From contig CAZPRY010000001.1 of NCBI GenBank assembly GCA_964589175.1, forward strand, positions 56,253-120,252: a stretch of 64,000 bases of DNA, in the 5' to 3' direction. This stretch comes from an uncultured bacterium. Lineage in GTDB: Bacteria > Fidelibacterota > UBA2242. The first letter of the stretch is position 1. The number at the start of each line of letters is the position of its first letter. Both the position numbers and the translations under genes were made by a program. This document shows, one piece after another, positions 1 to 40,428 of the stretch. The notes beneath the pieces are model-generated. The model was not told where the DNA came from and did not search any database. It saw only the letters and a program-made list of their open reading frames with translations.

Positions 1-2
1 TT

Positions 3-368
3 TTCAACAAAATCAAATATCCTTATAATGTCAACGGCGTTACCCAGAAAATGGCCCTCGAAGCGTTGGGGAGAGAGGATTCGAAAAATTCCATGGTTGC
101 TGTGATTCTGGAGGAGAGAGTCAAATTGGCTCGGCGGCTGGCGGAGTTGGCCATTGTGGAAAAAGTGTTTCCGTCGGAAGCCAATTTTCTGTTGGCGCGC
201 TTCCGGAACGGACGGCGGGTTTTTGATTATTTGAAAACAAAGGAATTGATCGTTCGCGACCGGTCGCGCGTGATGCATTGCGCCGGCTGTCTGCGCATTA
301 CGGTTGGTACGCCCTCCGAAAACGCTGAACTCATGCAAATGTTACACGCATATAAAGGTGACGAATGA
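3..368 (+). CDS. hisC: Histidinol-phosphate aminotransferase, C-terminal fragment (5' end outside window)
   Basis: Open frame runs from the window edge with no stop between 3 and 50. The C-terminal sequence ([19 protein letters not shown]) is typical of class-II aminotransferase HisC. It overlaps hisB by 4 nt in an operon arrangement. Confidence 0.7.
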
Positions 369-4092: not shown

Positions 4093-4212
4093 AAGCAAGA
4101 ATTCGCCAAGATCAATAGATTTAACGGTCTAAAGTCACGTTTTATAGTGAAAATGCTCTGGCTGATTGTAAAATATTATTGAGATCAGCAAAGAATAAAA
4201 AATACCCTCACT

Positions 4213-4839
4213 TCAGATATCTGCTAACCGACCATGAGAAACGTCGTTTCTTGCAACCTCTATTCTATCTCCAATGCTATTGATTTTTATCTTCTCTCTA
4301 TACGTTTTACTACCTATTGTTTTTAAATGATAAAAACATGTGGTGATAGGAGAAGGAAATAGAATATTATCAATCTCTCGAAATATTCTACCAATATCGT
4401 TATGGGGATCGGCGGCGATAATTTTATACGGTATTGAAAGATTATTGATCTTATTTTTCAACTTTTTTTCATTGAGCAATACAGATGAATGGGTTTTTGC
4501 GTTTTCGCTAATCCAGGAACCATCTGATTTCAGTTTCCCTGATAAAATTCTGAAGAAATATTCGAATCTGGTTAATAGGAAAACGGATGAAATAACTGAT
4601 TGTGATTCAAGAAAATCGCTCTTAGATATTTCCCTTATTGCATATGCTACGTGCTCTTTATATCTATCGGGAAAAATCGAATTTGGTTCTGTTAAATCCA
4701 TATCAAGTGCAACTTGTTCAATGAAGAATTTAACTTCATTGGAACCATTAAACTGACCTATTGAAAGACAATTATTAATGATAAAATCTACTGCCTTTTC
4801 TGTGTTAGTAGATTCTATTGTGTTGTTTCTATTTATCAT
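4213..4839 (-). CDS. Hypothetical protein, HEPN-like (R-x4-H-x-x-R motif at C-terminus); possible Abi/RNase-type effector
   Basis: 208-aa ORF in a markedly AT-rich segment unlike the flanks. The C-terminus reads ARNDVSHGRL, matching the HEPN Rx4-6H signature seen in Abi2/AbiD-F-like and other HEPN RNases. It lies 52 bp downstream of the AAA ATPase on the same strand. There is no signal peptide. Confidence 0.5.
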   Translation of the reverse strand: MINRNNTIESTNTEKAVDFIINNCLSIGQFNGSNEVKFFIEQVALDMDLTEPNSIFPDRYKEHVAYAIREISKSDFLESQSVISSVFLLTRFEYFFRILSGKLKSDGSWISENAKTHSSVLLNEKKLKNKINNLSIPYKIIAADPHNDIGRIFREIDNILFPSPITTCFYHLKTIGSKTYREKIKINSIGDRIEVARNDVSHGRLADI

Positions 4840-13325: not shown

Positions 13326-16307
13326 ATGAATTGTCGGCGGCTATACGGCCTTTTTTGCATTGCCCTGCTGTCCACGGCCATATCGAACGGCGGGACAACC
13401 GGTAAAATTGCCGGACGCATTACCGATTCCGCGACCGGCCAGGCCCTGATCGCGGCGAATGTCATTTTGATTGAAAGGATGGCCGATGGGCGGATGCTGC
13501 CGTTATCAGCCGCCCTTCAGCAGGGTGCGGCGTCCGATCTGAGCGGGGAATATTATATCATCAATATTCCGCCGGGAATGTATTCCGTGAAATTCAGCTA
13601 CATGGGCTATCAGTCGATTATCGTTCCGGACGTTCGCGTTTCTTCGGATTTGACCACGCGCATCGACCGGGAGCTGTCATCCACTATCATCGAGGCCGGA
13701 GAGGCCGTCGTCGTCACCGGGGAGCGGCGTGAAATCCAGAAAGATCTGACCTCTTCGCAGGTCAGCATTGGTGCCGACCAGATCGATGAAATGCCGGTCC
13801 GCTCCGTGCGCGACCTGCTTTCCCTGCAGGCCGGGGTGACCCTGGATGCCTCTGGAAACCTGCACATCCGCGGCGGCCGTTCGACGGAAATCACCTATAT
13901 GGTTGATGGTGTCCAGATTCTCGATCCGCTCAACCGCAGCTCCGGCATCAGCATCGACGACCAATCCATCGATGAGCTGAAGACCATCACGGGAACTTTC
14001 AACGCCGAGTACGGCCAGGCCCTCTCCGGGGTGGTCAACATCGTGACCAAGCAGGGCAGCGATCAATTCAAACTGAACCTGACCGGCTATTGCGGCGATT
14101 ACTACAGCCGAGACGCCGATGTTTATTACGTCATGGATAATCCCGAATGGGCCAATGCCGTGGTCCGCTATGCCACCGGGGCCGATGATAACCTGAATTA
14201 TGAATTTCCCAATTCGGAGGGCCTTCCGGATGCCGGATATATCGCGGAAAAATCTTATTTAACTCGCAAATCGTATCTCAGCAATTTTAATCCGCTTCAG
14301 GCGAAAGATGCCCAATTAAATGTCTCCGGACCAGTCCCGTTTACGAACGCCCGGCTGACCTACTACACTTCCGGCCGCTATAACTACAATCCCGGCTATA
14401 TTTACGGGGCGAGGTATTTTATGCCGTGGGGTTTCCAGTCCCCGGTTTCGGATACGCTCAACACCTTTCAAGCCGTCGATAACCGCCTGGTCGCGATGAG
14501 ATCCTATGAAGGTTATTCGACCAATTCCAAGTTAAACTATCGACTGACCAACGCCATCAACCTGAGTTACGGACTATATTACAACCATGATTCAGGGCAA
14601 TACGGCTACACACACAATTATAAATACGTTCCCGATGCCCAGCGCCAATACACAACCGATGCCTGGACGCATATCTTTTCCTTAAAGCATTCCCTGTCGC
14701 CTAGAACCTTTTACGATTTCAAGGTGAGTCTGTACAATAAGGACCACGCCAATTACCGCTACAAAGATCCCGAAGACTATCGCTATATGCCGACGGAATC
14801 CAGCGATTTTGAGCTCTATGTTTTCGGGTATGAGAATCAGGAAGACATCTCGATGTGGTCCAATTCCTACGATTTCCGCTACTGGGGCAACCCGGTTAGT
14901 TATGGCATCACCGATGTCAAATTTCAATCGTATAAACTGGATATGACCAGCCAGCTTACGAAGCGCCATTTGATGAAATGGGGAGGCAATGTTACCCGCC
15001 ACGAGCTCTTCTACGACCAGTTTGAGATTCAGTTTTCGAGCAACGATTACCGTCCCTATGTACCCGGCGATAATTCACCTTACCATGTAAAATACAAGGC
15101 CTCGCCGCGCGAAATGGCCGCCTATGTCCAGGACAAGATCGAATTTGAAGAGTTGATTATTAATTTCGGTGTGCGTTTCGATTATTTCGATTCCGGCGGG
15201 CGGATTTTGATCGATCCCAAGGACCCGCAAATCTACGATCCGTTCAAGCTGGAGCATATCTATAAAAATTACAGCCAAACCACGCCGGACAGCGATCTGG
15301 TCGACTACAGCGTGGCCGAACGCGAGGAATTCTGGTACGCGAACGCCTCGTCGAAATACCAGGTCAGCCCGCGCTTCGGACTCTCTTTCCCGATCACCGA
15401 ACGGGGCGTTATTCACTTCTCTTACGGTCATTTTTTCCAGAATCCCGAATTCCGATTTTTATACGACAATCCGAATTTCTGGATTGAAGGCGCCGGTGCG
15501 GAGAACCTGGTGGGCAATGCCGATCTGAATGCCGAGCGGACGGTGATGTACGAACTCGGCCTGCAGCAGCAATTGCGTCAGAACATTTACCTGCACATCA
15601 CCGGTTTTTACCGGGACATTCGCGACTGGATCGGTACCGGTACGCCGATTGACACTTACCGGGGTATCACCTATTACCGCTATGAGAATAAGGATCACGC
15701 CGCCGCGAAGGGCATAACCCTCTCGGGAAAAGCCAATTTCGGGCATCTTATGCTCAACCTGGATTATACGTATATGACGGCCCAGGGGACCTCGTCCGAT
15801 CCCAAAGACGCCTATAACGATTCGCAGGCCGACCGGGCGCCGCGCCTGACTTTTATTAATCTGAACTGGGACCAGCGCCATTCGATTAGCGCTGTCCTGA
15901 ATTATACCGTTAAGCAATGGTCGCTGACCATGACGGGCAGCGCCAATTCGGGCTTTCCATATACACCTGAGTTTGCCCGGGGCGAAGTGTCGGGTTCGGG
16001 TACTTTCATCGGATTGACCGAAAACAGCGCCCGCAAGCCCTGGACCAGCAACGTGGACCTGCGTATTTCACGGACCATTAACATCGGAACAACCCGCGTT
16101 TCGGCCTTTCTGAATATTCGCAATCTCTTCGACCGGCGCAATGCGAATAACGTCTATTCTGATACCGGTCTGGCCGATTATACCATGCAGGGAATTACGC
16201 AGAAAGACCGGTTTCTGGAAATATCCAATGTGGATGATTACTACAATAATCCGAATTATTACAGCCCGCCGCGCTTTATCCAGTTCGGGCTGCGGATCGG
16301 ATTATGA
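13326..16307 (+). CDS. TonB-dependent outer-membrane receptor with N-terminal carboxypeptidase-regulatory-like domain
   Basis: 993 aa. Has a signal peptide and a CarbopepD_reg-like domain (GKIAGRITDSATGQAL...GEYYIINIPPGMYSVKFSYMGY). The plug motifs are DEMPVRSVRDLLSLQAGV...NLHIRGGRS, followed by a C-terminal beta-barrel. No SusD-like partner follows. Confidence 0.8.
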   Translation: MNCRRLYGLFCIALLSTAISNGGTTGKIAGRITDSATGQALIAANVILIERMADGRMLPLSAALQQGAASDLSGEYYIINIPPGMYSVKFSYMGYQSIIVPDVRVSSDLTTRIDRELSSTIIEAGEAVVVTGERREIQKDLTSSQVSIGADQIDEMPVRSVRDLLSLQAGVTLDASGNLHIRGGRSTEITYMVDGVQILDPLNRSSGISIDDQSIDELKTITGTFNAEYGQALSGVVNIVTKQGSDQFKLNLTGYCGDYYSRDADVYYVMDNPEWANAVVRYATGADDNLNYEFPNSEGLPDAGYIAEKSYLTRKSYLSNFNPLQAKDAQLNVSGPVPFTNARLTYYTSGRYNYNPGYIYGARYFMPWGFQSPVSDTLNTFQAVDNRLVAMRSYEGYSTNSKLNYRLTNAINLSYGLYYNHDSGQYGYTHNYKYVPDAQRQYTTDAWTHIFSLKHSLSPRTFYDFKVSLYNKDHANYRYKDPEDYRYMPTESSDFELYVFGYENQEDISMWSNSYDFRYWGNPVSYGITDVKFQSYKLDMTSQLTKRHLMKWGGNVTRHELFYDQFEIQFSSNDYRPYVPGDNSPYHVKYKASPREMAAYVQDKIEFEELIINFGVRFDYFDSGGRILIDPKDPQIYDPFKLEHIYKNYSQTTPDSDLVDYSVAEREEFWYANASSKYQVSPRFGLSFPITERGVIHFSYGHFFQNPEFRFLYDNPNFWIEGAGAENLVGNADLNAERTVMYELGLQQQLRQNIYLHITGFYRDIRDWIGTGTPIDTYRGITYYRYENKDHAAAKGITLSGKANFGHLMLNLDYTYMTAQGTSSDPKDAYNDSQADRAPRLTFINLNWDQRHSISAVLNYTVKQWSLTMTGSANSGFPYTPEFARGEVSGSGTFIGLTENSARKPWTSNVDLRISRTINIGTTRVSAFLNIRNLFDRRNANNVYSDTGLADYTMQGITQKDRFLEISNVDDYYNNPNYYSPPRFIQFGLRIGL

Positions 16308-17395
16308 ACTTTTTGGGAGAACTGCCGATGTACCCCGATGATCGTTTACTAAAACTGAGGCAACGGGCTGCCCTGCTCGGATTGCTGCTTGCTCTGTTGA
16401 CCGGTTTAGCGTTCCGTCCGCTTCAAGCCCAGACCGTTTCCAAGGTCGGTACTTCGGCCGCGAGTTTTCTGAAAATCGGTGTCGGCGGACGCGCTCTCGG
16501 GATGGGAGAAGCGTTTACGACCCAGGCGGACGACATCACGGCTATTTTCTGGAATCCGGCCGGCCTGGCCACTTTCCGGAATACGCAGATTCTGCTCAAT
16601 CATTACGATTATATCGCCGATCTCAGCTTCGATTACGGCGCGATTGCGACCGCCATCCCTGCCATTGGCACCGTCGGCGTTCACGTTTGTTTTTTAGGGA
16701 TGCCCGATATCGAGCGCACGACGGTCCAGGAACCCGACGGCACCGGCGAGATGGTTACGGCTTCCTCGATGACCGCCGGGGTCAGCTATGCCCGCAACCT
16801 GACCGATCGCTTTGCTATCGGCGGGACTGCCAAATATATCCAGGAAAAACTCTGGCATTGCAGCGCGTCCGGCTACGCCCTGGATGTCGGTGTTTTGTAC
16901 CGTACCTTTTTTAAGAATATCATGATCGGTATGTCGATATCGAATTTCGGTACGAATCTGCAACTTAAGGGACGAGACCTGCTGATCCAGCACGATATCG
17001 ACGAACGGAGCGACGGCAACAATGCCAACATAAACGGCTACCTGGCGTCCGATGCCTACAGTCTGCCCATCCTGTTCCGGGTCGGCGTCTCATCGAATCT
17101 GACCCGAGATTTTCTGAATATCCGGAATACTGATTTCATCATCTCCGTGGATGCCGTTCATCCCAGCGATAACTATGAATATCTGAATGTGGGCGCCGAA
17201 TATCAGTATCGCAATTTGATTGCCTTGCGCGCCGGCTACCGGCAATTGTACCTGGAGAATAGTGAAGGAGGACTGACTTTTGGCTTCGGTTTGCATCTGG
17301 ATGTAAAGAGTTTCAATTTCCGGGTTGATTATGCCGCCGTGGATTTCGGGCACCTGGACCGCCTCAACAAGTTTTCTTTGATATTATCATTCTAA
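16304..17395 (+). CDS. PorV/PorQ-family-like outer-membrane beta-barrel protein (T9SS-associated?)
   Basis: 363 aa with a signal peptide. The N-terminal motif is FLKIGVGGRALGMGEAFTTQADDITAIFWNPAGLA, which I recall as characteristic of the PorV/PorQ family (from memory, not searched). The C-terminus ends in an aromatic residue (LSF). It overlaps the TBDR stop by 4 nt. Confidence 0.5.
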   Translation: MNFLGELPMYPDDRLLKLRQRAALLGLLLALLTGLAFRPLQAQTVSKVGTSAASFLKIGVGGRALGMGEAFTTQADDITAIFWNPAGLATFRNTQILLNHYDYIADLSFDYGAIATAIPAIGTVGVHVCFLGMPDIERTTVQEPDGTGEMVTASSMTAGVSYARNLTDRFAIGGTAKYIQEKLWHCSASGYALDVGVLYRTFFKNIMIGMSISNFGTNLQLKGRDLLIQHDIDERSDGNNANINGYLASDAYSLPILFRVGVSSNLTRDFLNIRNTDFIISVDAVHPSDNYEYLNVGAEYQYRNLIALRAGYRQLYLENSEGGLTFGFGLHLDVKSFNFRVDYAAVDFGHLDRLNKFSLILSF

Positions 17396-28685: not shown

Positions 28686-29723
28686 TTAGTGGATCAGGGC
28701 ACTGAGGTTGCGGGTGAAAACCGGGAAATACTTCGCGTCGGTGCCCGGGTAGAAATCTTTTAATTTATCGGACAGGGATGCCAGCAGTTTCGGGTCCGGT
28801 TCGCCGCGCAGGATTTTGCCGGTTTCCTCGGCGCTGATATCTTCAAACCGGCCGGCCTGCCGGACGACTTCACGATTCACGGGACAATGCAGCTGACATT
28901 TTATGCAGCCCATCAGGGCGTTGTGGGCTTTGGCCGGAATCCAGGCGGGAAACTCACCCGGCACTTCGTTATACAGGGAGAGGCAGTTTCCGGCGCTGAT
29001 GATGAAGTTTTCATCAGGAATACATTTGGTCGGACACAGGCTGCGGCAGATCTTACAATTCTCGCAGGCCTCCACCATTTGTATTTCGCCCCAGTGATCT
29101 TCCGGAAACTGGAAATCGGTAAAGAAGGCCCAGAGCACCAGGAAAGTGCCCATACCGTCCACGAAACAGATATTGTTGCGGCCGTATTTTCCCAGTCCGC
29201 TGCGCACCGCCAGTAACTTAAGCGGGATTTTGTAGGTATTCTCAATCTGATGGTCGGGTTCTTTGATAATTTCCGTCTGAACAATGTTGAGCATCTGTTC
29301 CATCGTGGAGCCATCATCGAAATAGGAAGGCGGAACAATCAAATCGTAAACCTTGTCATTCCAGTGGAAATTGACATACATCATCCGGGCGGCGGTGGCC
29401 ATAACGATCAGCGACCTGGCGTTGGGCATTTCTTCCGGTAGATCAGCCGTGAATTTGCTGATATAACGGCGGAAAGTGGCTTGCTCGCTGATTTTTCCTT
29501 CGCGTTTGAGCTGCTCATAAAAGTCAACAGCTTCCTTTAGATGTTCCACCGAAAATGTTCTGTAGCGATAGGTGATCTCGGGGACCTCGGTCGGACTTTG
29601 CGCCAGATTGGGGAAGGCCCAAGCTCTTTGCAAAGTCAATGGAGAAAGGGCGCCGGCCAGCAGGATCGTTTTCAGGAAATCACGGCGGGAAAAGGCAGGC
29701 GAAAAACGCGCTATCATCTTCAT
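28686..29723 (-). CDS. TAT-exported Fe-S protein of the epoxyqueuosine reductase (QueG) / reductive dehalogenase superfamily
   Basis: The twin-arginine signal is SRRDFLKTILLAGALSPLTLQRAWA. The core shows a QueG-like pattern (GLGKYGRNNICFVDGMGTFLVL...) and two Cys clusters (CENCKICRSLCPTKCI and AGNCLSLYNEV...CIKCQLHCPVN). Start placed at the internal Met (MKMIARF); the track ORF begins 66 nt earlier. Confidence 0.6.
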   Translation of the reverse strand: MKMIARFSPAFSRRDFLKTILLAGALSPLTLQRAWAFPNLAQSPTEVPEITYRYRTFSVEHLKEAVDFYEQLKREGKISEQATFRRYISKFTADLPEEMPNARSLIVMATAARMMYVNFHWNDKVYDLIVPPSYFDDGSTMEQMLNIVQTEIIKEPDHQIENTYKIPLKLLAVRSGLGKYGRNNICFVDGMGTFLVLWAFFTDFQFPEDHWGEIQMVEACENCKICRSLCPTKCIPDENFIISAGNCLSLYNEVPGEFPAWIPAKAHNALMGCIKCQLHCPVNREVVRQAGRFEDISAEETGKILRGEPDPKLLASLSDKLKDFYPGTDAKYFPVFTRNLSALIH

Positions 29724-29871
29724 CTCCAGGTTGTGCGAAATTTGGAAAATTACGCCGTACATGCTATTGATGTTGTAGCGTAATGCCAACGGAATTTCGA
29801 TAAACGGTCAAATCACCGGTTAAGCGTATGCTTTCCATCTGCGAGCGAGTCTGTGCCGGAACAAATTTTCT

Positions 29872-31932
29872 CTATTTCAAATAATTGATTTTGATCGTGC
29901 TCGTGATCCGGTTGTGACTCTGCATCTGCACGAAATAAATACCGCTGGGCAGATTCTTTCGAAAAGCCTGATTCACGTCGAACAACACCTCGTGCCAGCC
30001 CGAAGACAGGGCGCTAATGTCGATCACGGCGACCAGCTGCCCGAGCATGTTGTAGATCTTGATCAACTTTAAGCCGCCAGGGCCCTCGGTAGAAATATAA
30101 ATCCGCAGGGTAGTCATCGAATTGAACGGATTGGGATAATTGCCGGCGATGAATGAGATCGGTACGACCGTATTTTGCCGGATTTGATCGACAGTAGCGG
30201 TGCCGTCATATTCGTTGTCATAATCGGCGATGTACGCCGTGTAGCGGCAGCGGATATTGTAGAGCAGGCTGAGATCGATCAACTGCTGTTTCAATTCCGG
30301 AGTCTCACCGTAAATTTCGATTTCCCATTCGAGCGCATCGATCATCTGCTTGGCCCACAGCGTCTCGACGAATTTGACCGTGTCCTGCTGGACGCTGAAA
30401 TCCAGCAGGAAGTCGTAAGCCCGGGGGCCGCCGGCGGAGTACCCGGCGATGCTCATGGCCGAAATGCCGGGATTGGCGTAACGTCCGCAAGTAAAGAAGC
30501 ATGAACCGGCGTAGGTGGACGGAATCGTCTGCGGCAAAATTTGCGATAGAGATGCCTGGCCGTATTCGATGGAAACGTCTTTGAGGACCGGTTGGCTGAT
30601 CTGGCTGAAGACCCGCTGCATCCCGGCTGCCAGGTTTTTTTCTTCATTGAGGTAAGTGACGAACCCGTAATTCAGATTGGCCAGCATTTCCAGGCGGGCG
30701 ACGTTGGGCTGATCGCCGATGCCGATCGGAAAAATGCCGGTTTTATGAGTATTCAACGATTCAATCTCGCGTGGATCGACCACATCGTAACCGCCGGTGA
30801 AGACCAGAATGGCATTGTTGTAATTATCATCCTGGATCTGATTCAGGCAAAGTTTAAGCCCCTCGTCCAGCATTGAGCCGGAACCGGTGGATAATCCGGA
30901 CAGATAACTTTTCGCCTCAGAAATGTTCGCCGTCGTGGGCGCAACCGGCTGATTTTTCCATGTAGAGGCGTTATATCGATAACACAGAAGATTGAAGCGA
31001 TCATTCATATTAAGATCGTCAAGAGCTTCGGAGATGCAGGCGATACTCTGGCTGAGTTTGTACCCGAACATGCGGCTGGATAGGGAAACGAGAAACAGGA
31101 TCCGGCGCGGCAGAAGACTGTCCGGTGGTACCTCGGCCTGGGGGCGGATAAAAAGCCCGAAATGCCCGTCACAGCTATCGTTCGCGACCGAAAAGAAATC
31201 GACGCCGAGTTCCGCCTGTTCGACTTTGTAGTAGAATTTCAGATTGTTGTTGATATAGGCCTTGGGCTGTGACAATTTAAGTTCCAGATGACGGCTTTGC
31301 GATTGAGAAATCCGAAAATCCGGGTGGGTTGGGATGTCGAATTCCGTAATCGGTGAATTCGAGTCGATGTGAATTTCGACTTCCAGCTGATCCAGCGGCC
31401 AAGTGACAAAATCCCCGGTCCCCAGCGGATAGTTGTAAGTACATTTGCCCCGGTAATAATCCAGCCGGCTGATATAGCGCAGCTGCACGCGCTGGACCGC
31501 GCCGGGTTTTATGCCCTTTAACAGGATTTTGATGCCGTTGCTGCCGATGTACTGGTTCACCAGGGCCGCGACGCCGCCTTCACCGGTGCCGGGATTGACG
31601 GCCTGCTCTCTGACTTTCAGCACGGCCTGGTAGACCTTGTCCTCGTACCAATAAAGAAAACGCGTGGCGCGCGCATCAACCGGTAAGGGAAAGGAATAGA
31701 CCACGTCGGTGGAATCGGTCCACTCGTTGACAAATTCCTGGTAGACGTAGGTTTCGGCAACAAGCCCGTGGATATCCACCATGACCTGGGTCAGGCGGTT
31801 GCGCAGGAAGTCTTTGGGGTAATTTTCATCGGTCGGCATCATTAGTCCGTCGGCGCATAGCATACCGGCCCAAAGCAAGACGAGTACGGTCAGAGAAATA
31901 TATTTGCTTTTCATGATAGTTAGCTCCTTCAC
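29872..31932 (-). CDS. Secreted VIT (vault/inter-alpha-trypsin) + von Willebrand factor A domain protein with T9SS C-terminal sorting domain
   Basis: 686 aa. Has a signal peptide and a VIT-like N-terminus (VYQEFVNEWTDSTDVVYSFPLPVDARATRFLYWYEDKVYQAV). The vWA region is ILFLVSLSSRMFGYKLSQ. The C-terminus reads NYPNPFNSMTTLRIYIS...GIYFVQM...K. It overlaps the upstream gene by 4 nt and is the last gene of the operon. Confidence 0.7.
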   Translation of the reverse strand: MKELTIMKSKYISLTVLVLLWAGMLCADGLMMPTDENYPKDFLRNRLTQVMVDIHGLVAETYVYQEFVNEWTDSTDVVYSFPLPVDARATRFLYWYEDKVYQAVLKVREQAVNPGTGEGGVAALVNQYIGSNGIKILLKGIKPGAVQRVQLRYISRLDYYRGKCTYNYPLGTGDFVTWPLDQLEVEIHIDSNSPITEFDIPTHPDFRISQSQSRHLELKLSQPKAYINNNLKFYYKVEQAELGVDFFSVANDSCDGHFGLFIRPQAEVPPDSLLPRRILFLVSLSSRMFGYKLSQSIACISEALDDLNMNDRFNLLCYRYNASTWKNQPVAPTTANISEAKSYLSGLSTGSGSMLDEGLKLCLNQIQDDNYNNAILVFTGGYDVVDPREIESLNTHKTGIFPIGIGDQPNVARLEMLANLNYGFVTYLNEEKNLAAGMQRVFSQISQPVLKDVSIEYGQASLSQILPQTIPSTYAGSCFFTCGRYANPGISAMSIAGYSAGGPRAYDFLLDFSVQQDTVKFVETLWAKQMIDALEWEIEIYGETPELKQQLIDLSLLYNIRCRYTAYIADYDNEYDGTATVDQIRQNTVVPISFIAGNYPNPFNSMTTLRIYISTEGPGGLKLIKIYNMLGQLVAVIDISALSSGWHEVLFDVNQAFRKNLPSGIYFVQMQSHNRITSTIKINYLK

Positions 31933-34283
31933 TTCAGGTACAGAATTTTAGCGGATTCGGTGTGAGTTTTTCCGTTATCGTCCCGCATCGAGAGTTTCGC
32001 GATGTACAATCCGGAGCCGATCGGAAGTCCTTGTTCGTTGCCGGTATTCCAGACAAAATGGGTATACGCATTTGGCGTCAGGCTGAATTTCCTGACCAGC
32101 TGCCCGAGCACATTGTAGATCAGGATATCGCCCGGCCGGTAGCGATCGCTGTCGATCCGGAAGGTGATTTCCTGGTTAAAGGGATTGGGATAAAAAGTCA
32201 GTACACGCAAACCGCTGCCGGCCGATGGCGGCTGGTAAGCAAAAGTCTGAATGGCGCCTCTGCCCTCGAAATGGATTTCAACGCACAAAAGATTCGAATC
32301 GCCCGAAGTGGAAGAACTGGTATAGGTGAGTACATATTTTTCGACGGCGAAAAGATTGGTGATATCCAGCAGAATGTCGCGATATTTTCCCGTAATGTCA
32401 TAAAAACTACCGCCGGTGGGTAGTACGATCGGATTCATCCACTCCGTCTGATGCTTCAACTGGCCGATTCCGTAAATCGTGATATCCATACTCAGCATTC
32501 GGTTGACGACTTGCTCTTTTGTGTAGTTATGTTCCGGGTAAGGCTCGTCGGTAATCCAGATGATGGTGCGTTTGCTGCCGGGGCGCCAGGAGAGTTGCGT
32601 GGCGCGATACAAGGCAGCGGGTGAATCTTCGATTCCTCCCCAGAGCTGGATACTGGCCAGATTTGCCTTGATCTGATCGATATCGTTGGTGAAGTCCCAT
32701 ACGTCGTCGATCGTGGTGCTAAAGGTGACAACTCCGATCTGGAAATCGTAGCCGTTGCGGGCGAGAGTTTCGGCAAACTCGTTGAGATTGACTCGCACAC
32801 TGTCGATGTCGTCACCCATGCTGCCGGAGCAATCCAGAACGAACACTATATCCACCAGGGTCGCGCCGCCGGTTGTCTGTTTTCCGAATTCAAAATCGGT
32901 GATCGGCAATCCGTTTTCGGAAATGGTGAGATTCTCCAAGGAAAGATCCCGAATCCGGTATTTTGTATCCTTGTCTTCCACAGTAAAAATGAAGGAAACC
33001 TCGGGAAAATTCTCTGTAATGATTGTATCGGGAGTGATGACCAAACCGGTGTCCGACATCGGAACTCCCGGCATGAAGATATTGCGCCGCATTTCATCAA
33101 ACAACTCGCCATCCTTACGGAGTTCGACGATGAGCGGCAGGATAAAATCCTCGTACACTACTTTGGATTGGAGCTCAGCCTGGGCAAAGGCCATCTCGCT
33201 GGCAGGCACGCTAATGGTAATATTTGTATCGGCAGATTGAATGGCGTCCGGCAGGGTGAGTTCCAGCTTCGCATCGGTGATCCCGGAACCGGTTTCATTG
33301 AAGATTTCAATGTAAGTCTTGAAATCGCGCGGAAACAGCCGGTTATTGGTTAACGAAAATGCAGTCGGGGCATCCCAGCGCAGCAACAGGCCGGTCGAAA
33401 AATCGGGTTCTTTCAACTGCAAGACTGTTACAGCGGTTTTCGTCGCGCCGGGCGGGAGTTCCTCTTCCGGCCAGTAGATTTTCAGGGCCAGGTCATAAAT
33501 CTTGCGCAGGAGGCTGTTTTCGAATTCCGGAGCGGGGGAAGTGTAGATATCCGCCCAGTTGGCGGCAATGATACGTTCCGGTATGGTATTCGGAAAAGCC
33601 AGATCGATTCCGATGCCCTTTGCTCCTGCCGACTTCTCCCAGATTGAAACCGGCGTCGACGCGTCCGGGGCAAGGAGAATTGTATCGTTGTCGATCCACT
33701 GCTGGTCCAGCATCAAGGCGCCGTCCCCCCATTGGCCGAGGGCCGGATCGAAAACCAGGCCGAGTCCCATTGCGTGCGCGATTGTATCCAGATTACTGAT
33801 CGCACAAGCAATCTCAAATGACTGGGACTCGCTTTGATAGACAAGGGTAAACTCGAAAGTTACTCTTTGGCTGTCGACTGCGTTGAAGCTGAGCGTGTCA
33901 CCGGAAATTTCGAGTGAAGTTATGGCTTGATTCGTGAAGTAATCCTCGGCCCTGTACCAGGTGCCATCGACGGAGAAAACGGGATAGGATGTTTTCGCGT
34001 AGGGGTGGCCATAGGCGATGGCACAACGGTCATCCGCCATTGAGGAGGAAATACCGCCGGTTGTTCCGAGGGTAAAATAGCCGCCGTCGATCATAGTCAT
34101 GGCGGCCTGATCGTCATCCCAGTCCAGATAATCGAAGCTGACGAGCGGCCAGCCGGAACTCGTTTTCCCCAGGCCGGGGGCCTCAAGATCGAATTCGGAT
34201 TTGTCAATCGGGGCTGCTGTCAGGATGTAGCAAACAACCACTAGAAACAGGCTAAGTTTTTTCATAGTGCCTCCTTTATACAA
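31929..34283 (-). CDS. Secreted vWA-domain (MIDAS) protein with T9SS C-terminal sorting domain
   Basis: 784 aa. The vWA domain with a DxSxS MIDAS motif is VDIVFVLDCSGSMGDDIDSVRVNL...GVVTFSTT...IIWITDE. The C-terminus reads FYPNPFNQEITFRIDS...GLYIAKL...K. The start may be the internal MKKLSLF (34265). Confidence 0.7.
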   Translation of the reverse strand: MYKGGTMKKLSLFLVVVCYILTAAPIDKSEFDLEAPGLGKTSSGWPLVSFDYLDWDDDQAAMTMIDGGYFTLGTTGGISSSMADDRCAIAYGHPYAKTSYPVFSVDGTWYRAEDYFTNQAITSLEISGDTLSFNAVDSQRVTFEFTLVYQSESQSFEIACAISNLDTIAHAMGLGLVFDPALGQWGDGALMLDQQWIDNDTILLAPDASTPVSIWEKSAGAKGIGIDLAFPNTIPERIIAANWADIYTSPAPEFENSLLRKIYDLALKIYWPEEELPPGATKTAVTVLQLKEPDFSTGLLLRWDAPTAFSLTNNRLFPRDFKTYIEIFNETGSGITDAKLELTLPDAIQSADTNITISVPASEMAFAQAELQSKVVYEDFILPLIVELRKDGELFDEMRRNIFMPGVPMSDTGLVITPDTIITENFPEVSFIFTVEDKDTKYRIRDLSLENLTISENGLPITDFEFGKQTTGGATLVDIVFVLDCSGSMGDDIDSVRVNLNEFAETLARNGYDFQIGVVTFSTTIDDVWDFTNDIDQIKANLASIQLWGGIEDSPAALYRATQLSWRPGSKRTIIWITDEPYPEHNYTKEQVVNRMLSMDITIYGIGQLKHQTEWMNPIVLPTGGSFYDITGKYRDILLDITNLFAVEKYVLTYTSSSTSGDSNLLCVEIHFEGRGAIQTFAYQPPSAGSGLRVLTFYPNPFNQEITFRIDSDRYRPGDILIYNVLGQLVRKFSLTPNAYTHFVWNTGNEQGLPIGSGLYIAKLSMRDDNGKTHTESAKILYLK

Positions 34284-34301
34284 GTCATTGCACGAATGTT
34301 T

Positions 34302-34715
34302 TTATCTCAATAATACCATTTTCCTTGTCGCCGCAAACTCCCCAGCCCGAATGCTGCAGATGTAGATGCCGCTCGGTACGAGCTGCCCGGCGTCGTCGAT
34401 GGCGTTCCAGTTGATCCGGTACTGCCCGGGATTCTGCCGCTCGTTGACCAGGGTCGCGATCAGTTTGCCGTTTAGGTCGTAAATGCGGATCAGGACGGTG
34501 TGGTTTGCCGCTCCGGCGGGCAATTCGTAAGAAATCACCGTGGTAGCGTTGAAGGGATTGGGGTAGTTCTGGTCGAGACGGAAGTTCTCTGGCCCGGGAT
34601 TTTTCTCCTCGTCAATATCCGTGGTCGCGTCGTAATCGATGAAGAAGCCGTTCGTATTCGAGCTCCAGAGGCTGTCGCCCTCCCAGCTGCGGGCCAGGAC
34701 CTTCCAGAAGTAGGT
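34302..34715 (-). repeat. ~414-bp near-identical DNA repeat, copy A (3' end of 34302-36146 gene: FN3-like + T9SS CTD coding)
   Basis: By-eye DNA alignment with 36149-36562 gives ~90% identity. The encoded 137 aa differ at only ~20 positions. Confidence 0.7.
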
Positions 34716-36146
34716 CTTGCCGGCGGCTAAAGAATCGATCGTATAGGTTGCGTCGCCGATTCCGGTTATGATACGTGGATTTGAGAATTCCAGGTCTTCT
34801 GCGATATAAAGATCATAGCCGACTTCCCAGGGAAAATTCTTCTCGATATCCGTAGCCTGATTCCATGTAAACTCGGGTTTACGGGTTTTTAGCGATGAGT
34901 CATCTTCCGGCAGGATAGTCTGGAAAAGGCGCAGGTTGTGAGAAACGATTTCATTGGAGAAGGACTTTCCGACAATGGCATATCTTGAACCACATTCCCA
35001 GAATATGATAAAGCGCCTAATACCAGCTGAAATCGAAGGATAGGTCTGCCAAGATCGTGTAAAGGAATTCACCTGAAATTCAGGCCCGATTCTATTTCCT
35101 GAGTTATCGAAAACCTGGGCAAATATTCCGTAGCCTGAGCCATCCTGTTCCCAACTTTGCCAGGCGATGATGAATTTATCCTCAGCAAAGGCCTGGACGG
35201 CTGGTAGTTCCTGCTGGGCATCTGTGTATGAATTAACCTGGAGTTCGGAACCGACTTGATTGCCGTTGTTATCGAAGATTTGAGCATAAATTCCTTCTTT
35301 GGAACCATCCTGCTCAAAACTCATCCAGCAGATGACGAACTTATTTTCACCAAGAACTGCTATAGCCGGGCGGCTCTGGGCTTGAGGTAAATAGGAGTTG
35401 ACCTGGAACTCGGAACCGAATCTGTTTGCTTGTGCATCGAAGAGTTGCGCGAATACCCCGACGTAAGCTCCGTCCTGATACATGCTTTCCCAGCAGATCA
35501 CAAACTTGCCATCGCTTAAAACGCATACTTCCGGATATTGCTGTGAGCTGGGCGTATAGGTGTTGACCTGGAATTCGGAAGCGATTGGATTCCCATTGCA
35601 GTCAAATAGTCTGGCGAATATACCGCTATTTGCTCCATCCTGCCAATCGCTCTGCCAGCAGATAACAAATTGATCGTTGGGGAGCGTGGCAATTGAAGAA
35701 TTCCATTGACCCTGATCAGTGTAAGTGTTCACCTGAAATTCTGATTTTACCCGCAGACCGCTTTGGTCAAACATCTGTGCGAAAACTTCATAACCAGGAT
35801 TACCGTGCCAGCAAATCACAAATTCACCGTTTTGAAGTGCAGTAATCGCAGGGAAATGTTGGTCGCTTTTCGTATATGTGTTCGCAATAAATTCATAACT
35901 AAGCTGAACACCGTTTTCATCTAGTAATCGTGCGTACACATCGGCATGAGTTGTCCAGCTAACCGCGAATTTACCATTGGATAAAATCGTTGAAGCAGGA
36001 AACATTGGTATATAATGTCGGTCAGTATAAGCACAGACCGTAAATTCAGGGTGGCGCGATACGCATTGCCCGAAGAGAATGTCAAGTAGTGCGTAAAGGA
36101 CGATGGCTAGCAAAAGCCGTTCTCGAAGTTTGATTGTGAATGTCAT
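34302..36146 (-). CDS. Secreted protein built of ~7 tandem ~52-aa repeats (propeller-like blades) + FN3-like region + T9SS C-terminal domain
   Basis: 614 aa. The repeat unit is EFQVNTYT.DQ..P.I.AL.NGEFVICW.....DG...GVFAQ.FD..G...GSEFQVN. The C-terminus reads NYPNPFNATTVISYELP...GIYICSIRAG...R. Confidence 0.65.
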   Translation of the reverse strand: MTFTIKLRERLLLAIVLYALLDILFGQCVSRHPEFTVCAYTDRHYIPMFPASTILSNGKFAVSWTTHADVYARLLDENGVQLSYEFIANTYTKSDQHFPAITALQNGEFVICWHGNPGYEVFAQMFDQSGLRVKSEFQVNTYTDQGQWNSSIATLPNDQFVICWQSDWQDGANSGIFARLFDCNGNPIASEFQVNTYTPSSQQYPEVCVLSDGKFVICWESMYQDGAYVGVFAQLFDAQANRFGSEFQVNSYLPQAQSRPAIAVLGENKFVICWMSFEQDGSKEGIYAQIFDNNGNQVGSELQVNSYTDAQQELPAVQAFAEDKFIIAWQSWEQDGSGYGIFAQVFDNSGNRIGPEFQVNSFTRSWQTYPSISAGIRRFIIFWECGSRYAIVGKSFSNEIVSHNLRLFQTILPEDDSSLKTRKPEFTWNQATDIEKNFPWEVGYDLYIAEDLEFSNPRIITGIGDATYTIDSLAAGKTYFWKVLARSWEGDSLWSSNTNGFFIDYDATTDIDEEKNPGPENFRLDQNYPNPFNATTVISYELPAGAANHTVLIRIYDLNGKLIATLVNERQNPGQYRINWNAIDDAGQLVPSGIYICSIRAGEFAATRKMVLLR

Positions 36147-36148
36147 AT

Positions 36149-36562
36149 TTACCTCAATAATACCATTTTCCTTGTCGCCGTAAACTCCCCGGCCCGGATG
36201 CTGCAGATGTAGATGCCGCTCGGCAGCGTCTGCCCGGCGTCGTCGGTAGCATTCCAGCTTATCCGGTACTGCCCGGGATTCTGCCGCTCGTTGATCAGAG
36301 TGGCGACCAGCTTGCCGTTCAGATCGTAGATGCGGATCAGCACGGAGTAGTCGGCAGCGCTGGCGGGCAGTTCGTAGGAAATCACTGTGGTAGCATTGAA
36401 GGGATTTGGGTAGTTCTGCTCGAGACGGAAGCCTTCGGGCTTGGCATTTGTCTCAGTCTCAATATCCGTAGTCGCGTCGTAATCGATGAAGAAGCCGTTG
36501 GTATTCGAACTCCAGAGGCTGTCGCCCTCCCAGCTGCGGGCCAGGACTTTCCAGAAGTAGGT
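36149..36562 (-). repeat. ~414-bp near-identical DNA repeat, copy B (3' end of 36149-38020 gene)
   Basis: Same as copy A, including the shared terminal motif TTACCTCAATAATACCATTTTCCTTGTCG. Confidence 0.7.
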
Positions 36563-38020
36563 TGTACCAGGGACAAGTTCTGATTCAATCGTATAATTTG
36601 TATCCTGAATTTCTGAAATAATTTGGGGATTGGTAAAATCGGGATTGTCAGCGATATAGAGGTCGTAAGTAATCTCCCAAGGAAAATTCTCCCTTATCTC
36701 AGAAGCTTCGTTCCACCGAAAAGTCGGATTTTGGATTTCTAAGGTCGCATCATTTTTTGGTACCAGGAGTGGCCGGGAAACAAGGGTGTGCGTTATCGGG
36801 TCGCTTAGGTAAACTTTGGCATACACACCTCTACCGGAACCATCCTGGCCATTGCTCGTCCAACAAACAATAAATTTACCATTTTCCAGACATTGAATCG
36901 ATGCATCCCATTGGTCGGATTCAATATGATCATTAACGCGGAACTCTGGTCCCATCCTTTCACCGTTGTTGTCAAATAATTGGGCGTGAATATCTGAACC
37001 GGAGCCATCGTGCCCGAAACTAGTCCAGCAGACGAGAAACCCACTTTCGAGCAAATCTGCTATAAAAGGTGTGCGTTGATCGAAATCTGTGTATGTGTTG
37101 ACCTGGAACTCAGTCCCAATTTTGCTGCCGCAGCTATCAAGGACCTGAGCGAAGATGTTATAATTTGATCCGAGAATAAGATGATTACTTTGCCAGCATA
37201 TGACAAATCGATCGCCCTGGATGGCGGCGACAGACGGGTAAGCCTGATCACCAAACGAGCTACTATGTACTTGGAATTCCTGTCCGTATTTTCCTCCATT
37301 TTCCTTGAACAGCTGGGCATAGATTCCGCCATCCGAACCATCCTGATGTAAACTTTGCCAGCAGATTAAAAATTGGGAATTCGGGAGAGTAGCGACGGAA
37401 TGTCTGAATTGATAACTTTCCCAATGTGAATTCACCTGAAATTCATATCCAATTTTGTTTGCATTTTCGTCAAACATTTGCGCATAGACCCCATAAACGG
37501 AGCCATCCTGGGAATGGCTTTCCCAAGAAATCAGGAACCGGCTATCAGCGAAGCATAAAATTGAAGGATATGCCTGATTATTAATAATGTAAGAATTTAC
37601 CTGAAATTCCTTACCAAGTTTTTCCCCATTGCTTTCGTACTTCTGAGCGTACACGCCATAGCCCGAGTTATCTTGATACTGGCTATGCCAAGAGACAATG
37701 AATTTATTATCCGGAAAGGAAGCAACCGTTGGCTTGCATTGATGGTTCGCCGTGTAGGTGTTTACCAAAAATTCTTCTCCGAAGATATTTTCGCTGATGT
37801 CCAGGATTCGGGCAAAAATTCCCTTATCAGAACCATCTCGATATCGGTCATACCACGTAATTACAATTCTTCCATCAGGAAGAGAGGTGCAGACGGGCAG
37901 CCCCTGATCATCCTCGATATACGTGTTCACCTGAAATTCGTGATTATACGGCACACCCTGCCCGAGGATAAGACCTGTTATTATCACTAGTATCATGCCG
38001 CTTAATGGGAGGTGTTTCAT
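36149..38020 (-). CDS. Tandem paralog of the propeller-like repeat protein with near-identical C-terminal 137 aa and T9SS domain
   Basis: 623 aa with the same repeat architecture (EFQVNTYIEDDQGLPVCTSLPDGRIVITW...DGSDKGIFARILD...). Its stop is 2 nt before the start codon of the downstream paralog. Confidence 0.65.
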   Translation of the reverse strand: MKHLPLSGMILVIITGLILGQGVPYNHEFQVNTYIEDDQGLPVCTSLPDGRIVITWYDRYRDGSDKGIFARILDISENIFGEEFLVNTYTANHQCKPTVASFPDNKFIVSWHSQYQDNSGYGVYAQKYESNGEKLGKEFQVNSYIINNQAYPSILCFADSRFLISWESHSQDGSVYGVYAQMFDENANKIGYEFQVNSHWESYQFRHSVATLPNSQFLICWQSLHQDGSDGGIYAQLFKENGGKYGQEFQVHSSSFGDQAYPSVAAIQGDRFVICWQSNHLILGSNYNIFAQVLDSCGSKIGTEFQVNTYTDFDQRTPFIADLLESGFLVCWTSFGHDGSGSDIHAQLFDNNGERMGPEFRVNDHIESDQWDASIQCLENGKFIVCWTSNGQDGSGRGVYAKVYLSDPITHTLVSRPLLVPKNDATLEIQNPTFRWNEASEIRENFPWEITYDLYIADNPDFTNPQIISEIQDTNYTIESELVPGTTYFWKVLARSWEGDSLWSSNTNGFFIDYDATTDIETETNAKPEGFRLEQNYPNPFNATTVISYELPASAADYSVLIRIYDLNGKLVATLINERQNPGQYRISWNATDDAGQTLPSGIYICSIRAGEFTATRKMVLLR

Positions 38021-38048
38021 CTTCTTGCTCCGGCTCCGGCTTTGTTAT

Positions 38049-38330
38049 TTACCTCAATAATACCATTTTCCTTGTCGTCGAAAATTCACCGGCCCGGATG
38101 CTGCAGAGGTAGATACCGCTCGGCAGCGGCTGCCCGGCGTCGTCGGTGGCGTTCCAACTGATCCGGTACTGCCCGGGATTCTGCCGCTCGTTGACCAGGA
38201 TCGCGATCAGTTTACCGTTCAGGTCATAGATGCGGATCAGGACGGAATAGTTTGCCGCGTCGGCGGGCAGTTCGTAGGAAATCACGGTTGTGGCGTTGAA
38301 GGGATTGGGGTAGTTCTGCTGCAGCGTGAA
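38049..38330 (-). repeat. ~282-bp copy C of the same repeat (T9SS CTD coding portion only) at the 3' end of the VIT-vWA gene
   Basis: The 93-aa C-terminus FTLQQNYPNPFNATTVISYELPADAANYSVLIRIYDLNGKLIAILVNERQNPGQYRISWNATDDAGQPLPSGIYLCSIRAGEFSTTRKMVLLR is near-identical to copies A and B at the DNA level. Confidence 0.65.
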
Positions 38331-40154
38331 CTGATCCGGTAACTGCTTTTGCGAATCGGTGTCCGTATTGTCGTTCGGGTTGTCTTCGTTCGGGTCGGAA
38401 TAGAAGGCCGTATAGGGCGTCAGGATCTGGAAGCGCAGGCTCAGTTCGATGATCTGATTGACGAGCTCATCGCTTTCACCGTAGGTATCGATGAGGTCCA
38501 GTAAGTGATCGATCTTGGCGTTGGCCCAGAGGCGCGGCACGAAGCGGTGCCCGCCGAGTGTATCGGGAAAGGTGATCGACTTGACATGCTCGAAAGGCTC
38601 CAACCGCATGTCGCCACGCAGGGCGACTTCGAAGATGCCGCTGTTGTTATACAGTCCGACGTAGAGCAGCTGCGTGCCGAAAAACAGGTCGTAAATCGTC
38701 TTGGGATACTGGTCCCAGGTCATCAGCCCGCCGAAGTCGAGATTGATATTCTGCAACACCGGTTTGGAAATTCGCAGGAAGTGGTCGTTGACCACCACGG
38801 CGATGCTATCGTCTGCGGTGATGAATTTAGCGTAGCCGTGATTGTTGAGGGCCAGTTCCTTGAGGAGCAGGCGGTTGAGGTCCTCACCGACGCCGAAGGG
38901 AAAGATACGCACGCCTTTCGAGTTGAGCCGGGTGATTTGGGCGATAATCGAATCGGGAAAGGTTTCGCCCCAGGTGGGACGCCCATCGGTCAGAAAAACC
39001 AGGTTGTTGGAAGTCTGCTCGCCGTAAGATTGCTGCAGCGAGTTCGTCAACGCCTGGCTGATATTGGTCATTCCCAGGGCATAGAGCTGGTACACGAAGT
39101 CTTTGGCCTGGGTGATATTGGCGAAATTGACCGGGACCAGGTCGGACTGGAACTGGCTGACGAAGGTGCCGAAGCTTATAATATTGAAGCGATCGTCGGG
39201 ATTGAGCAAATCCAGGAAATTGTTGAGCGCCTTCTTGACCTGCTGGATGCGCACTCCCTCCATACTCGATGAGACATCGACCGTGAAGACGATATCCTTG
39301 GGGATGATTTCCTCGTTCTCGATTGTATCCGGCGGATTGATCCACAGGGCATAGAAACTGTCGGTGCCGAAGGAATCGGCCGGCGCCGGGCTATACGTCA
39401 GGATTTGCATGTCTACATTTTCGCGTTTGACCTCGAATTCAATCTGCAGGTCTTTATCGGGCAGAAAGTTCTCGTCGCCGTAAAACAGCGTGTAATGATT
39501 CGCGGCGAGTTGCTGAATCTGGGTGGCGGTGGAACTCTGATGCGATGGAGAAGCGAAGCGCTTGAACATTGTCGCAGTTTGGACATCAACATCGACTGAG
39601 ACGGTCAGCAACGGGTGGGGTGAAAGCTCCAGCGTATTCAACAGGAATGTGTAGTAGACGATTCCCAGGTCATAATTCAGCGGTTCCATATAGGTGATCT
39701 CGGTGCGCACTTCGCTGAGCGCGTTGATCGGGGCGATGCTCAGGCGGAAGAGGTTGTCGCCCAGGTACTCGAGCAGGGCGGGGTCGAGATTGCGCCGGAT
39801 CGTCTGGTTATAATCCTGCACCGCCGCCTGCCGCTCGCGTATATTGGCGACATAGTGCTCGCCGTTGAACCAGTAGACCAGTTCGGTCATTGTTGCGTTT
39901 TCGGGAAGCGGGAAGATATAAATGGCCTCGACAGTGGAATTCTTTTCATTGAAAAACATCTGGTCCACATGCGTTACCGCGATCTGACCCTGTATCTCGA
40001 TATCGGCGCTGACGGTTTTTATCCACATTTTTTCGTATTCGGTGCTGGTCCCGATGCGGCGGCAGAACAAGGCTCCGACGGCGAATGTCTGCTCGCCAAA
40101 AGCCAGCAGCAGGACAATCAGAGCCAGAAAAGATAATCGTTGAGAATGGTTCAT
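38049..40154 (-). CDS. Secreted VIT + vWA domain protein with T9SS C-terminal domain (first gene of the five-gene operon)
   Basis: The VIT-like region is QIAVTHVDQMFFNEKNSTVEAIYIFPLPENATMTELVYWFNGEHYVANI. The vWA region is IVFTVDVSSSMEGVRIQQVKKALNNFLDLLNPDDRFNIISFGT. The C-terminal 93 aa are ~90% identical to those of the two repeat proteins. The ATG at 40154 (MNHSQRLSF..., signal peptide) has a GGAGGA SD 8 nt upstream; the track uses a GTG at 40169. Confidence 0.7.
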   Translation of the reverse strand: MNHSQRLSFLALIVLLLAFGEQTFAVGALFCRRIGTSTEYEKMWIKTVSADIEIQGQIAVTHVDQMFFNEKNSTVEAIYIFPLPENATMTELVYWFNGEHYVANIRERQAAVQDYNQTIRRNLDPALLEYLGDNLFRLSIAPINALSEVRTEITYMEPLNYDLGIVYYTFLLNTLELSPHPLLTVSVDVDVQTATMFKRFASPSHQSSTATQIQQLAANHYTLFYGDENFLPDKDLQIEFEVKRENVDMQILTYSPAPADSFGTDSFYALWINPPDTIENEEIIPKDIVFTVDVSSSMEGVRIQQVKKALNNFLDLLNPDDRFNIISFGTFVSQFQSDLVPVNFANITQAKDFVYQLYALGMTNISQALTNSLQQSYGEQTSNNLVFLTDGRPTWGETFPDSIIAQITRLNSKGVRIFPFGVGEDLNRLLLKELALNNHGYAKFITADDSIAVVVNDHFLRISKPVLQNINLDFGGLMTWDQYPKTIYDLFFGTQLLYVGLYNNSGIFEVALRGDMRLEPFEHVKSITFPDTLGGHRFVPRLWANAKIDHLLDLIDTYGESDELVNQIIELSLRFQILTPYTAFYSDPNEDNPNDNTDTDSQKQLPDQFTLQQNYPNPFNATTVISYELPADAANYSVLIRIYDLNGKLIAILVNERQNPGQYRISWNATDDAGQPLPSGIYLCSIRAGEFSTTRKMVLLR

Positions 40155-40163
40155 CGCTAAATC

Positions 40164-40207
40164 CTCCACGTTGTGGAGAAATGTTGATAATATTGCTGCA
40201 TTTCTCC
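40164..40207 (-). promoter_or_regulatory. 5'-leader with two mutually exclusive hairpins overlapping the Shine-Dalgarno of the operon's first gene
   Basis: The mRNA (minus strand) reads GGAGAAAUG-N15-CAUUUCUCC (9-bp stem, 40175-40183 / 40199-40207), followed by UCCAC-AAC-GUGGA (40165-40177). In the second hairpin the GUGGA arm overlaps the GGAGGA SD. Confidence 0.25.
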
Positions 40208-40428
40208 GGAAAATTGTTCAATGAGAAATAGTGCTCCTAATTCACGAAGTAAAAAAACGAACGTAACAATTCCCTCCGATTGCGTCGGAAGGCATTCCGT
40301 TGAGGTAGTTTCCCATCACCAAACCAGGATAGCAACTTTAGTAAATGTTAGGGGATTCCTTTGAAGAACGCAAGTGCTTTTTCGAAAAAGATCCAGGTTG
40401 TCTCCGGATTATCGGGCCTTAGAGGACT

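Follow-up and report, generated by a model that had tools for sequence, protein, structure and literature searches.

The window analyzed here is a 64,000-nucleotide stretch of contig CAZPRY010000001.1 from an uncultured bacterium (Fidelibacterota; UBA2242). Positions 29872-40154 hold a cluster of five successive minus-strand open reading frames (ORFs), termed g5 to g1 in their 5' to 3' order, that encode von Willebrand factor A (vWA) and β-propeller proteins. All five products end in a type IX secretion system (T9SS) sorting domain. The genes are:

38049-40154, minus strand: g5, 701 aa; ITIH-like VIT-vWA protein with T9SS sorting domain
36149-38020, minus strand: g4, 623 aa; seven-bladed propeller, fibronectin type III (fn3) domain and T9SS sorting domain
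34302-36146, minus strand: g3, 614 aa; propeller paralog of g4 with fn3 and sorting domain
31929-34265, minus strand: g2, 778 aa; β-rich N-region, integrin-β-like vWA and sorting domain
29872-31914, minus strand: g1, 680 aa; VIT-vWA paralog with a degenerate MIDAS (adhesion site that depends on a metal ion) and sorting domain
40155-40428, minus strand: intergenic region upstream of g5, with a terminator-like hairpin; presumably the site of the cluster promoter

The starts are the ATG codons picked by independent gene callers on metagenome contigs that encode identical proteins; such proteins occur on seven contigs, six of which are listed (five from ENA, one from JGI). With these starts, the intergenic gaps from g5 to g1 measure 28, 2, 36, and 14 nt; if alternative TTG/GTG starts are used, the third gap shrinks to 18 nt and the fourth becomes an overlap of 4 nt. 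Every start is preceded by a Shine-Dalgarno-like motif 6 to 9 nt upstream, which in g5 is a GGAGGA located 7 nt ahead of the ATG. Promoter- and terminator-like sites are no more frequent within the cluster than in shuffled sequence, and the terminator-like hairpin (40391-40409) sits 3' of the preceding β-lactamase-family gene. A sigma-70 promoter scan that included the upstream region identified no site above chance level, with a model that may not suit this lineage. Co-transcription of the five genes is plausible.

All five proteins pass the 23-bit cutoff of the T9SS type A sorting domain model TIGR04183:

38052-38312, minus strand: g5 sorting domain, TIGR04183 38.5 bits
36152-36430, minus strand: g4 sorting domain, TIGR04183 42.1 bits
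34305-34565, minus strand: g3 sorting domain, TIGR04183 41.2 bits
31932-32192, minus strand: g2 sorting domain, TIGR04183 26.4 bits
29875-30138, minus strand: g1 sorting domain, TIGR04183 36.0 bits

The Pfam model Por_Secre_tail (PF18962) exceeds its cutoff in four of the five (33.9 bits on g5), with g2 reaching 22.0 bits against a cutoff of 27. Each N-terminus is signal-peptide-like, with a hydrophobic stretch of 12 to 18 residues behind a basic n-region. The putative mature N-terminus directly behind this stretch reads A|DGLLMP in all 13 g1 orthologs compared, and a conserved FA|VGALF occupies the same place in the g5 orthologs. The T9SS core translocon genes fall outside the window. Inside it are genes for two more sorting-domain cargo proteins and for a protein of the PorV family (33.5 bits against a cutoff of 27), which makes it likely that the organism uses a T9SS.

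These results confirm the observation behind the original prediction, which was made from the letters and ORFs of the window and proposed an operon of T9SS-tailed surface proteins. Its gene order (VIT-vWA, repeat protein, repeat protein, vWA, VIT-vWA) agrees with the ORFs and with the Pfam and NCBIfam matches, sorting domains are found on all five products by TIGR04183 and on four by Pfam, and the tight gene packing supports an operon-like array. Overlaps or gaps of 28 bp or less, as it described them, fit the TTG/GTG starts, the ATG starts giving 2 to 36 nt. Its end coordinate of 40207 is out of frame with g5 and has to be corrected to the ATG start at 40154.

Domains and metal sites of the five proteins

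The protein g5 carries a VIT domain and a vWA domain with an intact MIDAS:

40080-40154, minus strand: putative g5 signal peptide
39690-40022, minus strand: g5 VIT domain, Pfam VIT 96.7 bits
38808-39296, minus strand: g5 vWA domain, Pfam VWA 68.2 bits
39264-39278, minus strand: g5 MIDAS motif DVSSS, invariant in orthologs

In an alignment of 16 orthologs, the MIDAS residues D293, S295, S297, T363, and D390 are all invariant. A profile built from these orthologs matches human ITIH4 (E=9e-69, spanning query positions 282-598 plus a second stretch), ITIH1 (6e-48), and PARP4 (5e-31). Orthologs from different loci are 55 to 73% identical, at a G+C content of third codon positions (GC3) that spans 0.23 to 0.74 across the loci. 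The named relatives stem from metagenome-assembled genomes (MAGs) of Calditrichaceae, KSB1, and Ignavibacteriales, the nearest being a 68% identical cluster from a MAG labeled Caldithrix abyssi.

The two remaining vWA proteins, g2 and g1, are built differently from each other:

32871-34205, minus strand: g2 N-region, β-rich, sandwich-like, family-specific
32412-32852, minus strand: g2 vWA domain, integrin-β-like; DCSGS at 32820-32834
31474-31791, minus strand: g1 VIT domain, Pfam VIT 48.7 bits
30634-31104, minus strand: g1 vWA domain, VWA 28.0 bits, VWA_3 33.2 bits

The vWA metal site of g2 keeps the DxSxS motif and the final Asp and has an invariant Glu in place of the MIDAS Thr of g5; in HMMER alignments, this Glu and the Asp fall on the "PE" and "TD" of integrin β8. 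Fold comparison returns ITIH1 and about 40 integrin β headpieces, the latter at template modeling (TM) scores of just 0.24 to 0.47. The Pfam Integrin_beta model gives no significant match to g2 of the window and faint ones in its relatives. The N-region resembles sandwich domains of carbohydrate-active enzymes, and no Pfam family fits it, even at E<=1. Nor is it detectably a VIT domain: when the g2 and g5 families were compared with hhalign, the alignment was confined to the vWA core. The N-region is rare, with 272 representatives among 1.84 billion clusters and no relative among the other ORFs of the window. Nearly all of its 82 strong matches are proteins of 760 to 800 aa, and weak relatives are found at the N-termini of giant proteins with Big_2, LRR, and RHS regions.

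The protein g1 is 28% identical to g5, and its metal site is degenerate: SLSSR, S, and G occupy the positions of DVSSS, T, and D in g5. Within the g1 family, the first Asp is retained in three of 14 members and the fifth position is variable. The gene lies directly 3' of g2 in 16 of 16 orthologous loci besides the window (L093-L106, L124, L125). The gap is about 11 to 16 nt in the window, as it is in the five loci for which genes were called. This invariant adjacency is hard to explain without a functional coupling of g2 and g1, and a g2-g1 heterodimer is probable.

Between g5 and g2 lie the two propeller genes g4 and g3:

36806-37939, minus strand: g4 propeller, seven 55-aa repeats (AlphaFold2 model)
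36470-36769, minus strand: g4 fn3 domain, matched by PDB profiles
34932-36047, minus strand: g3 propeller, first two blades shortened

Each protein contains seven 55-aa repeats (165-nt period), and the AlphaFold2 model of g4 (predicted local distance difference test score 86.3) folds into a seven-bladed propeller of seven times four strands that is followed by the fn3 and sorting domains. The blade consensus is EFQVNTYT..Q..P...L.DG.FVICW.S..QDGS..GIYAQ, and the same conserved motif recurs in all seven blades. Identity between g3 and g4 rises from 37.5% in the propeller to 66% in the fn3 domain and 87.5% in the sorting domain. Neither Pfam, over the first ~400 residues of both proteins and even at E<=1, nor a PDB sequence search with the propeller yields a match. 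An integrin-type assignment was rejected: PF01839 does not match at E<=1, and the blades carry neither the FG-GAP/Cage nor the DxDxDG motifs by which integrin-type propellers are defined (PMC3192720).

The propeller represents a large family that lacks a Pfam model (more than 3,300 matches). Its members have flagellin termini, RTX repeats, T9SS sorting domains, SLH, dockerin, or DUF11 as fusion partners, a spread that suggests a portable extracellular binding module. Among homologs P0002-P0120 are flagellins in which the propeller forms the central domain joined to the N and C termini (e.g., P0009, P0011, P0016).

Conserved synteny and mosaic 3' ends

Neighborhoods were gathered both from the propeller side and from the vWA side, and the g5 orthologs were examined in 12 loci including the window. 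Their arrangements are:

g5-g2-g1 directly adjacent: five loci (L093, L095, L100, L124, L125)
g5-propeller-propeller-g2-g1: one locus (the window)
g2-g1 first, with g5 after one or two other cargo genes: three loci (L094, L097, L098)
g5-propeller-propeller without g2-g1: two loci (L007, L011)
g5 by itself: one locus (L123)

The pair g2-g1 lies within 10 kb of g5 on the same strand in nine of the 12 loci. Propeller genes stand beside g5 in five of the 12 versus none of 80 control T9SS-cargo loci (1.16 Mb), which are unrelated loci drawn from a g5-alignment contig scan that was dominated by the sorting-domain pattern QNYPNPFN; homologs of the g2 N-region are likewise absent from these controls. 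In the seven loci with the full trio, mean pairwise identity amounts to 61% for g5, 54% for g1, and 41% for g2, and the pairwise identities of the three proteins co-vary (r = 0.60-0.81). From the locus arrangements and the co-varying identities, the conserved unit is g5 plus g2-g1, and the propellers are a recurrent optional companion of g5.

The slot between the modules can be filled by other cargo. In L097 (9833-14220), it holds genes unlike those of the window: one for a sorting-domain protein of 524 aa whose WVVWESDRDGDFDLYGK-type motif recalls the g4 blade, and one for a 929-aa sorting-domain protein with an N-terminus that looks VIT-like by eye. A 522-aa gene occupies the equivalent slot in L094. 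The lone g5 ortholog of L123 (CP070762.1) is preceded by an aerotolerance-type operon with BatA, BatD, and tetratricopeptide repeat (TPR) genes (1-4459, ~6-10 kb upstream), so that one genome contains a Bat vWA system as well as a member of the g5 family.

The propeller genes differ from their surroundings in composition and share their 3' ends with g5. The shared block comprises the end of the fn3 domain, the linker, and the sorting domain:

34302-34721, minus strand: shared 3' block in g3
36149-36568, minus strand: shared 3' block in g4
~38049-38348, minus strand: shared 3' block in g5

The 300-nt direct repeat is 84 to 86% identical among the three 3' ends. DNA identity between g4 and g3 is 80 to 93% over the final 420 nt of the genes; toward g5, it is 85 to 93% for ~240 nt, counted from the stop codon, and 65 to 70% over the next 60 nt. 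Past these limits, identity among the three genes drops to ~20%. At the protein level, the sorting domains of g5, g4, and g3 are 88 to 90% identical, compared with 37.5% for the propellers. The sorting domains of g2 and g1 are of a different type, with 46% mutual identity and 26 to 30% identity to the other three. GC3 is 0.47 to 0.50 in the propeller gene bodies and 0.68 to 0.90 in the shared block, where it agrees with that of g5 (0.74 to 0.79). Propeller bodies also fall below the neighboring vWA genes in L007, L011, L094, and L098, and in L011 the propeller sorting domains have a GC3 of 0.59 to 0.61 against 0.31 to 0.35 in the bodies.

Because a shared high-GC3 block sits on low-GC3 and otherwise unlike bodies, the mosaic is read as a resident sorting-domain cassette that was placed on compositionally foreign genes by recombination or gene conversion. 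Third-position identity within the block is 0.75 to 0.78, which shows that such an event would be either not very recent or recurrent. The block offers a small, clear example of how imported genes may gain a local secretion tag.

Elsewhere in the window, the gene 3' of g1 (28686-29789, minus strand, 155 nt past g1) specifies an Fe-S protein that has a twin-arginine signal and weakly resembles QueG and reductive dehalogenases, and is not kept beside g1 in other loci. The plus strand carries a polysaccharide-utilization-like cluster (7386-28560) with two LacI regulators, a 1194-aa carbohydrate-binding module family 9 (CBM9) protein with T9SS sorting domain, a TonB-dependent receptor, a 1202-aa protein without Pfam match, a peptidyl-prolyl isomerase, a glycoside hydrolase family 26 (GH26) protein with sorting domain, a CBM35/metallo-β-lactamase-fold protein, and a sulfatase. 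Directly after its TonB-dependent receptor comes the PorV-family protein (16304-17395), in the place expected for a SusD-type partner. Neither Rfam models nor a tRNA search gave any match in the window.

Proposed function and comparison with known systems

The reading favored here, with somewhat better than even confidence, is that the cluster encodes a T9SS-exported, metal-dependent adhesion or ligand-capture set of two conserved modules and an accessory propeller insertion. Module A would consist of g5 with its intact MIDAS and module B of a g2-g1 heterodimer, with g4 and g3 inserted between them. All five proteins would leave the cytoplasm via Sec, have their C-terminal sorting domains recognized by the T9SS, and be displayed on the cell surface or released from it. 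Through a divalent cation, g5 and g2 may use their MIDAS to bind acidic groups of a ligand or of each other, and g1 may act as the non-metal-binding partner of g2. The propellers with their near-identical blade repeats could add multivalent binding of a lectin-like or Ca-dependent kind. The individual elements have precedents, one of them being Mfa5, a T9SS-targeted adhesin that has a vWA with MIDAS and belongs to a multiprotein fimbria (PMC7835359).

Several results weigh against this adhesion set. The solved fold nearest to the g4 propeller is that of an enzyme, CylK (Foldseek E=2.3e-12, TM 0.49/0.47), followed by sialidases, with GH93 and GH43 as further matches. The modules are also found apart: L007 and L011 have just g5 and propellers, about seven loci have g2-g1 by itself, and L123 has g5 alone. 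From this separate occurrence, a five-part complex is judged not to be obligatory. Finally, g5 is unusually well conserved for an adhesin. This hints that what it binds is itself conserved, and possibly endogenous, and not a variable ligand from the environment.

In place of an assembly, the five products could be independent surface proteins, each with its own target, and the interval between g5 and g2-g1 a permissive spot for co-regulated T9SS cargo genes. This possibility is taken seriously, at clearly lower probability than the adhesion set. It would account for the changing contents of the slot, which is empty in five loci, pairs a single propeller gene with a different gene in L094 and L098, and contains the 524-aa and 929-aa proteins in L097. 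The GC3 of the propeller bodies, unlike that of their neighbors in every locus examined, and the tandem propeller genes that occur with no vWA gene in L009 and L010 point the same way. Less compatible with it are the invariant g2-g1 adjacency with its short gaps, the linkage of g5 to g2-g1 in most loci in the same orientation, and the absence of propellers from all control loci.

Two further readings assign the propellers a more specific role. They could be secreted enzymes, glycosidase- or CylK-like, in a degradative unit at the surface, with vWA proteins that tether the substrate or present it. The CylK, sialidase, GH93, and GH43 folds, the nearby polysaccharide-utilization-like cluster with its T9SS-tailed GH26 and CBM9 proteins, and the carbohydrate-active enzyme-like sandwich of the g2 N-region speak for such a unit. 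It is held to be unlikely, given that one conserved motif in all seven blades would be typical of binding or structural propellers and not of enzymes with one active site, that no glycoside hydrolase or BNR family matches, and that the fusions to flagellin, RTX, SLH, and dockerin suggest a display or binding module. Slightly less probable still is an integrin-like α/β head, in which the propeller-fn3 protein docks on the vWA domain of g2 or g5 to create a composite metal-dependent ligand site. Such a head would fit the β-I-style metal site of g2 (DxSxS, Glu, Asp) with its ~40 integrin β headpiece matches, the ITIH-like g5, whose fold has been described as integrin-like (PMC7170535), the seven-bladed propeller-fn3 genes between g5 and g2, and the integrin α chains in the propeller fold list. 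These chains appear at ranks 19 and 22 only, behind the closer CylK and sialidase folds, the propeller lacks the integrin-type motifs and PF01839, and most g5-g2-g1 loci contain no propeller gene.

For the adhesion set, physical association is suggested by gene linkage. In this light, the original prediction of one secreted, five-gene, multisubunit adhesion or capture assembly holds in part. The proteins are T9SS cargo, and their homologs are syntenic in other loci; scattered homologs were part of the outcome that it had named as refuting. The syntenic core, however, is g5 with g2-g1, and the propellers are an optional insertion, so that the single five-gene unit does not stand. Of the MIDAS sites that it ascribed to the vWA proteins, two of three are intact, in g5 (five invariant residues) and in g2, and that of g1 is lost.

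Outside the classical Bacteroidota, T9SS cargo has received almost no study. The three-protein set occurs in MAGs labeled Calditrichaceae, KSB1, Ignavibacteriales, Marinimicrobia, and Bacteroidota, and is a testable candidate for a core surface apparatus of these sediment phyla, with a role in adhesion, particle capture, or the envelope. It also supplies a bacterial context for the ITIH and integrin-β fold. A bolder and improbable extension is that the trio is a conserved bacterial counterpart of the integrin/ITIH head, a β-I-type vWA paired with a MIDAS-dead VIT-vWA, to which some lineages would have recruited propeller-fn3 "α-like" subunits; these would have joined the secretion route of the host when an imported gene body received a resident sorting-domain cassette by recombination.

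In literature searches, no published system matched this gene set, in line with the earlier statement that its architecture matches none, and a match for VIT domains together with T9SS proved to be only an entry in a proteome table. Two vWA systems were rejected as counterparts. No BatA, BatD, or TPR matches of the BatA-E aerotolerance operon are found in the five proteins or the flanking genes, and all five cluster proteins differ from that system by their signal-peptide-like segments and sorting domains. PADLOC models of anti-phage defense vWA systems match none of the five.

A likeness to the integrin headpiece may lie in the β-I-type metal site and fold of the g2 vWA and in the propeller and Ig-type domain proteins encoded alongside. 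The headpiece differs by the FG-GAP/Cage and DxDxDG motifs of its propeller (PMC3192720), and here the propellers are optional. In g2, PSI and EGF domains, a transmembrane helix, and a cytoplasmic tail were not detected, and the C-terminus is the T9SS sorting domain. CylK, whose C-terminal propeller is the solved structure nearest in fold to that of g4, binds Ca2+ at every blade (PMC8916777), and many homologs of the g4 propeller are fused to RTX repeats. The two share 12% identity with no sequence-level match, and g4 and g3 have no CylK-type N-domain.

Closest overall are the inter-α-trypsin inhibitor heavy chains (ITIH), the VIT-vWA sortase targets of proteobacteria, and Mfa5. With ITIH1 and ITIH4, g5 and g1 share the whole architecture of a VIT domain and a vWA inserted in a hybrid domain, and g5 keeps the MIDAS. 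ITIH1 dimerizes via its MIDAS, and two paralogous heavy chains act together (PMC7170535). The cluster proteins differ in being bacterial, in their T9SS sorting domain, and in the lost MIDAS of g1, and no bikunin/chondroitin partner is seen in the cluster. The sortase-target family TIGR03788 (marine proteobacterial sortase target), likewise a VIT-vWA protein with a dedicated signal that sorts it to the cell surface, is the best NCBIfam match of g5 (258.0 bits) and g1 (166.5 bits), covering positions 176-601 of the 629 in the model. Membership was rejected, as both scores lie far under the 551.65-bit cutoff. The signal here is a T9SS sorting domain instead of a sortase signal, the cluster has no sortase gene, and the named g5 relatives belong to the Calditrichaceae, KSB1, and Ignavibacteriales MAGs rather than to Proteobacteria. 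Mfa5 of Porphyromonas gingivalis differs in lacking a VIT domain, in its isopeptide-stabilized Ig domains, and in its location in the mfa fimbrial operon, fimbrilin genes being absent here.

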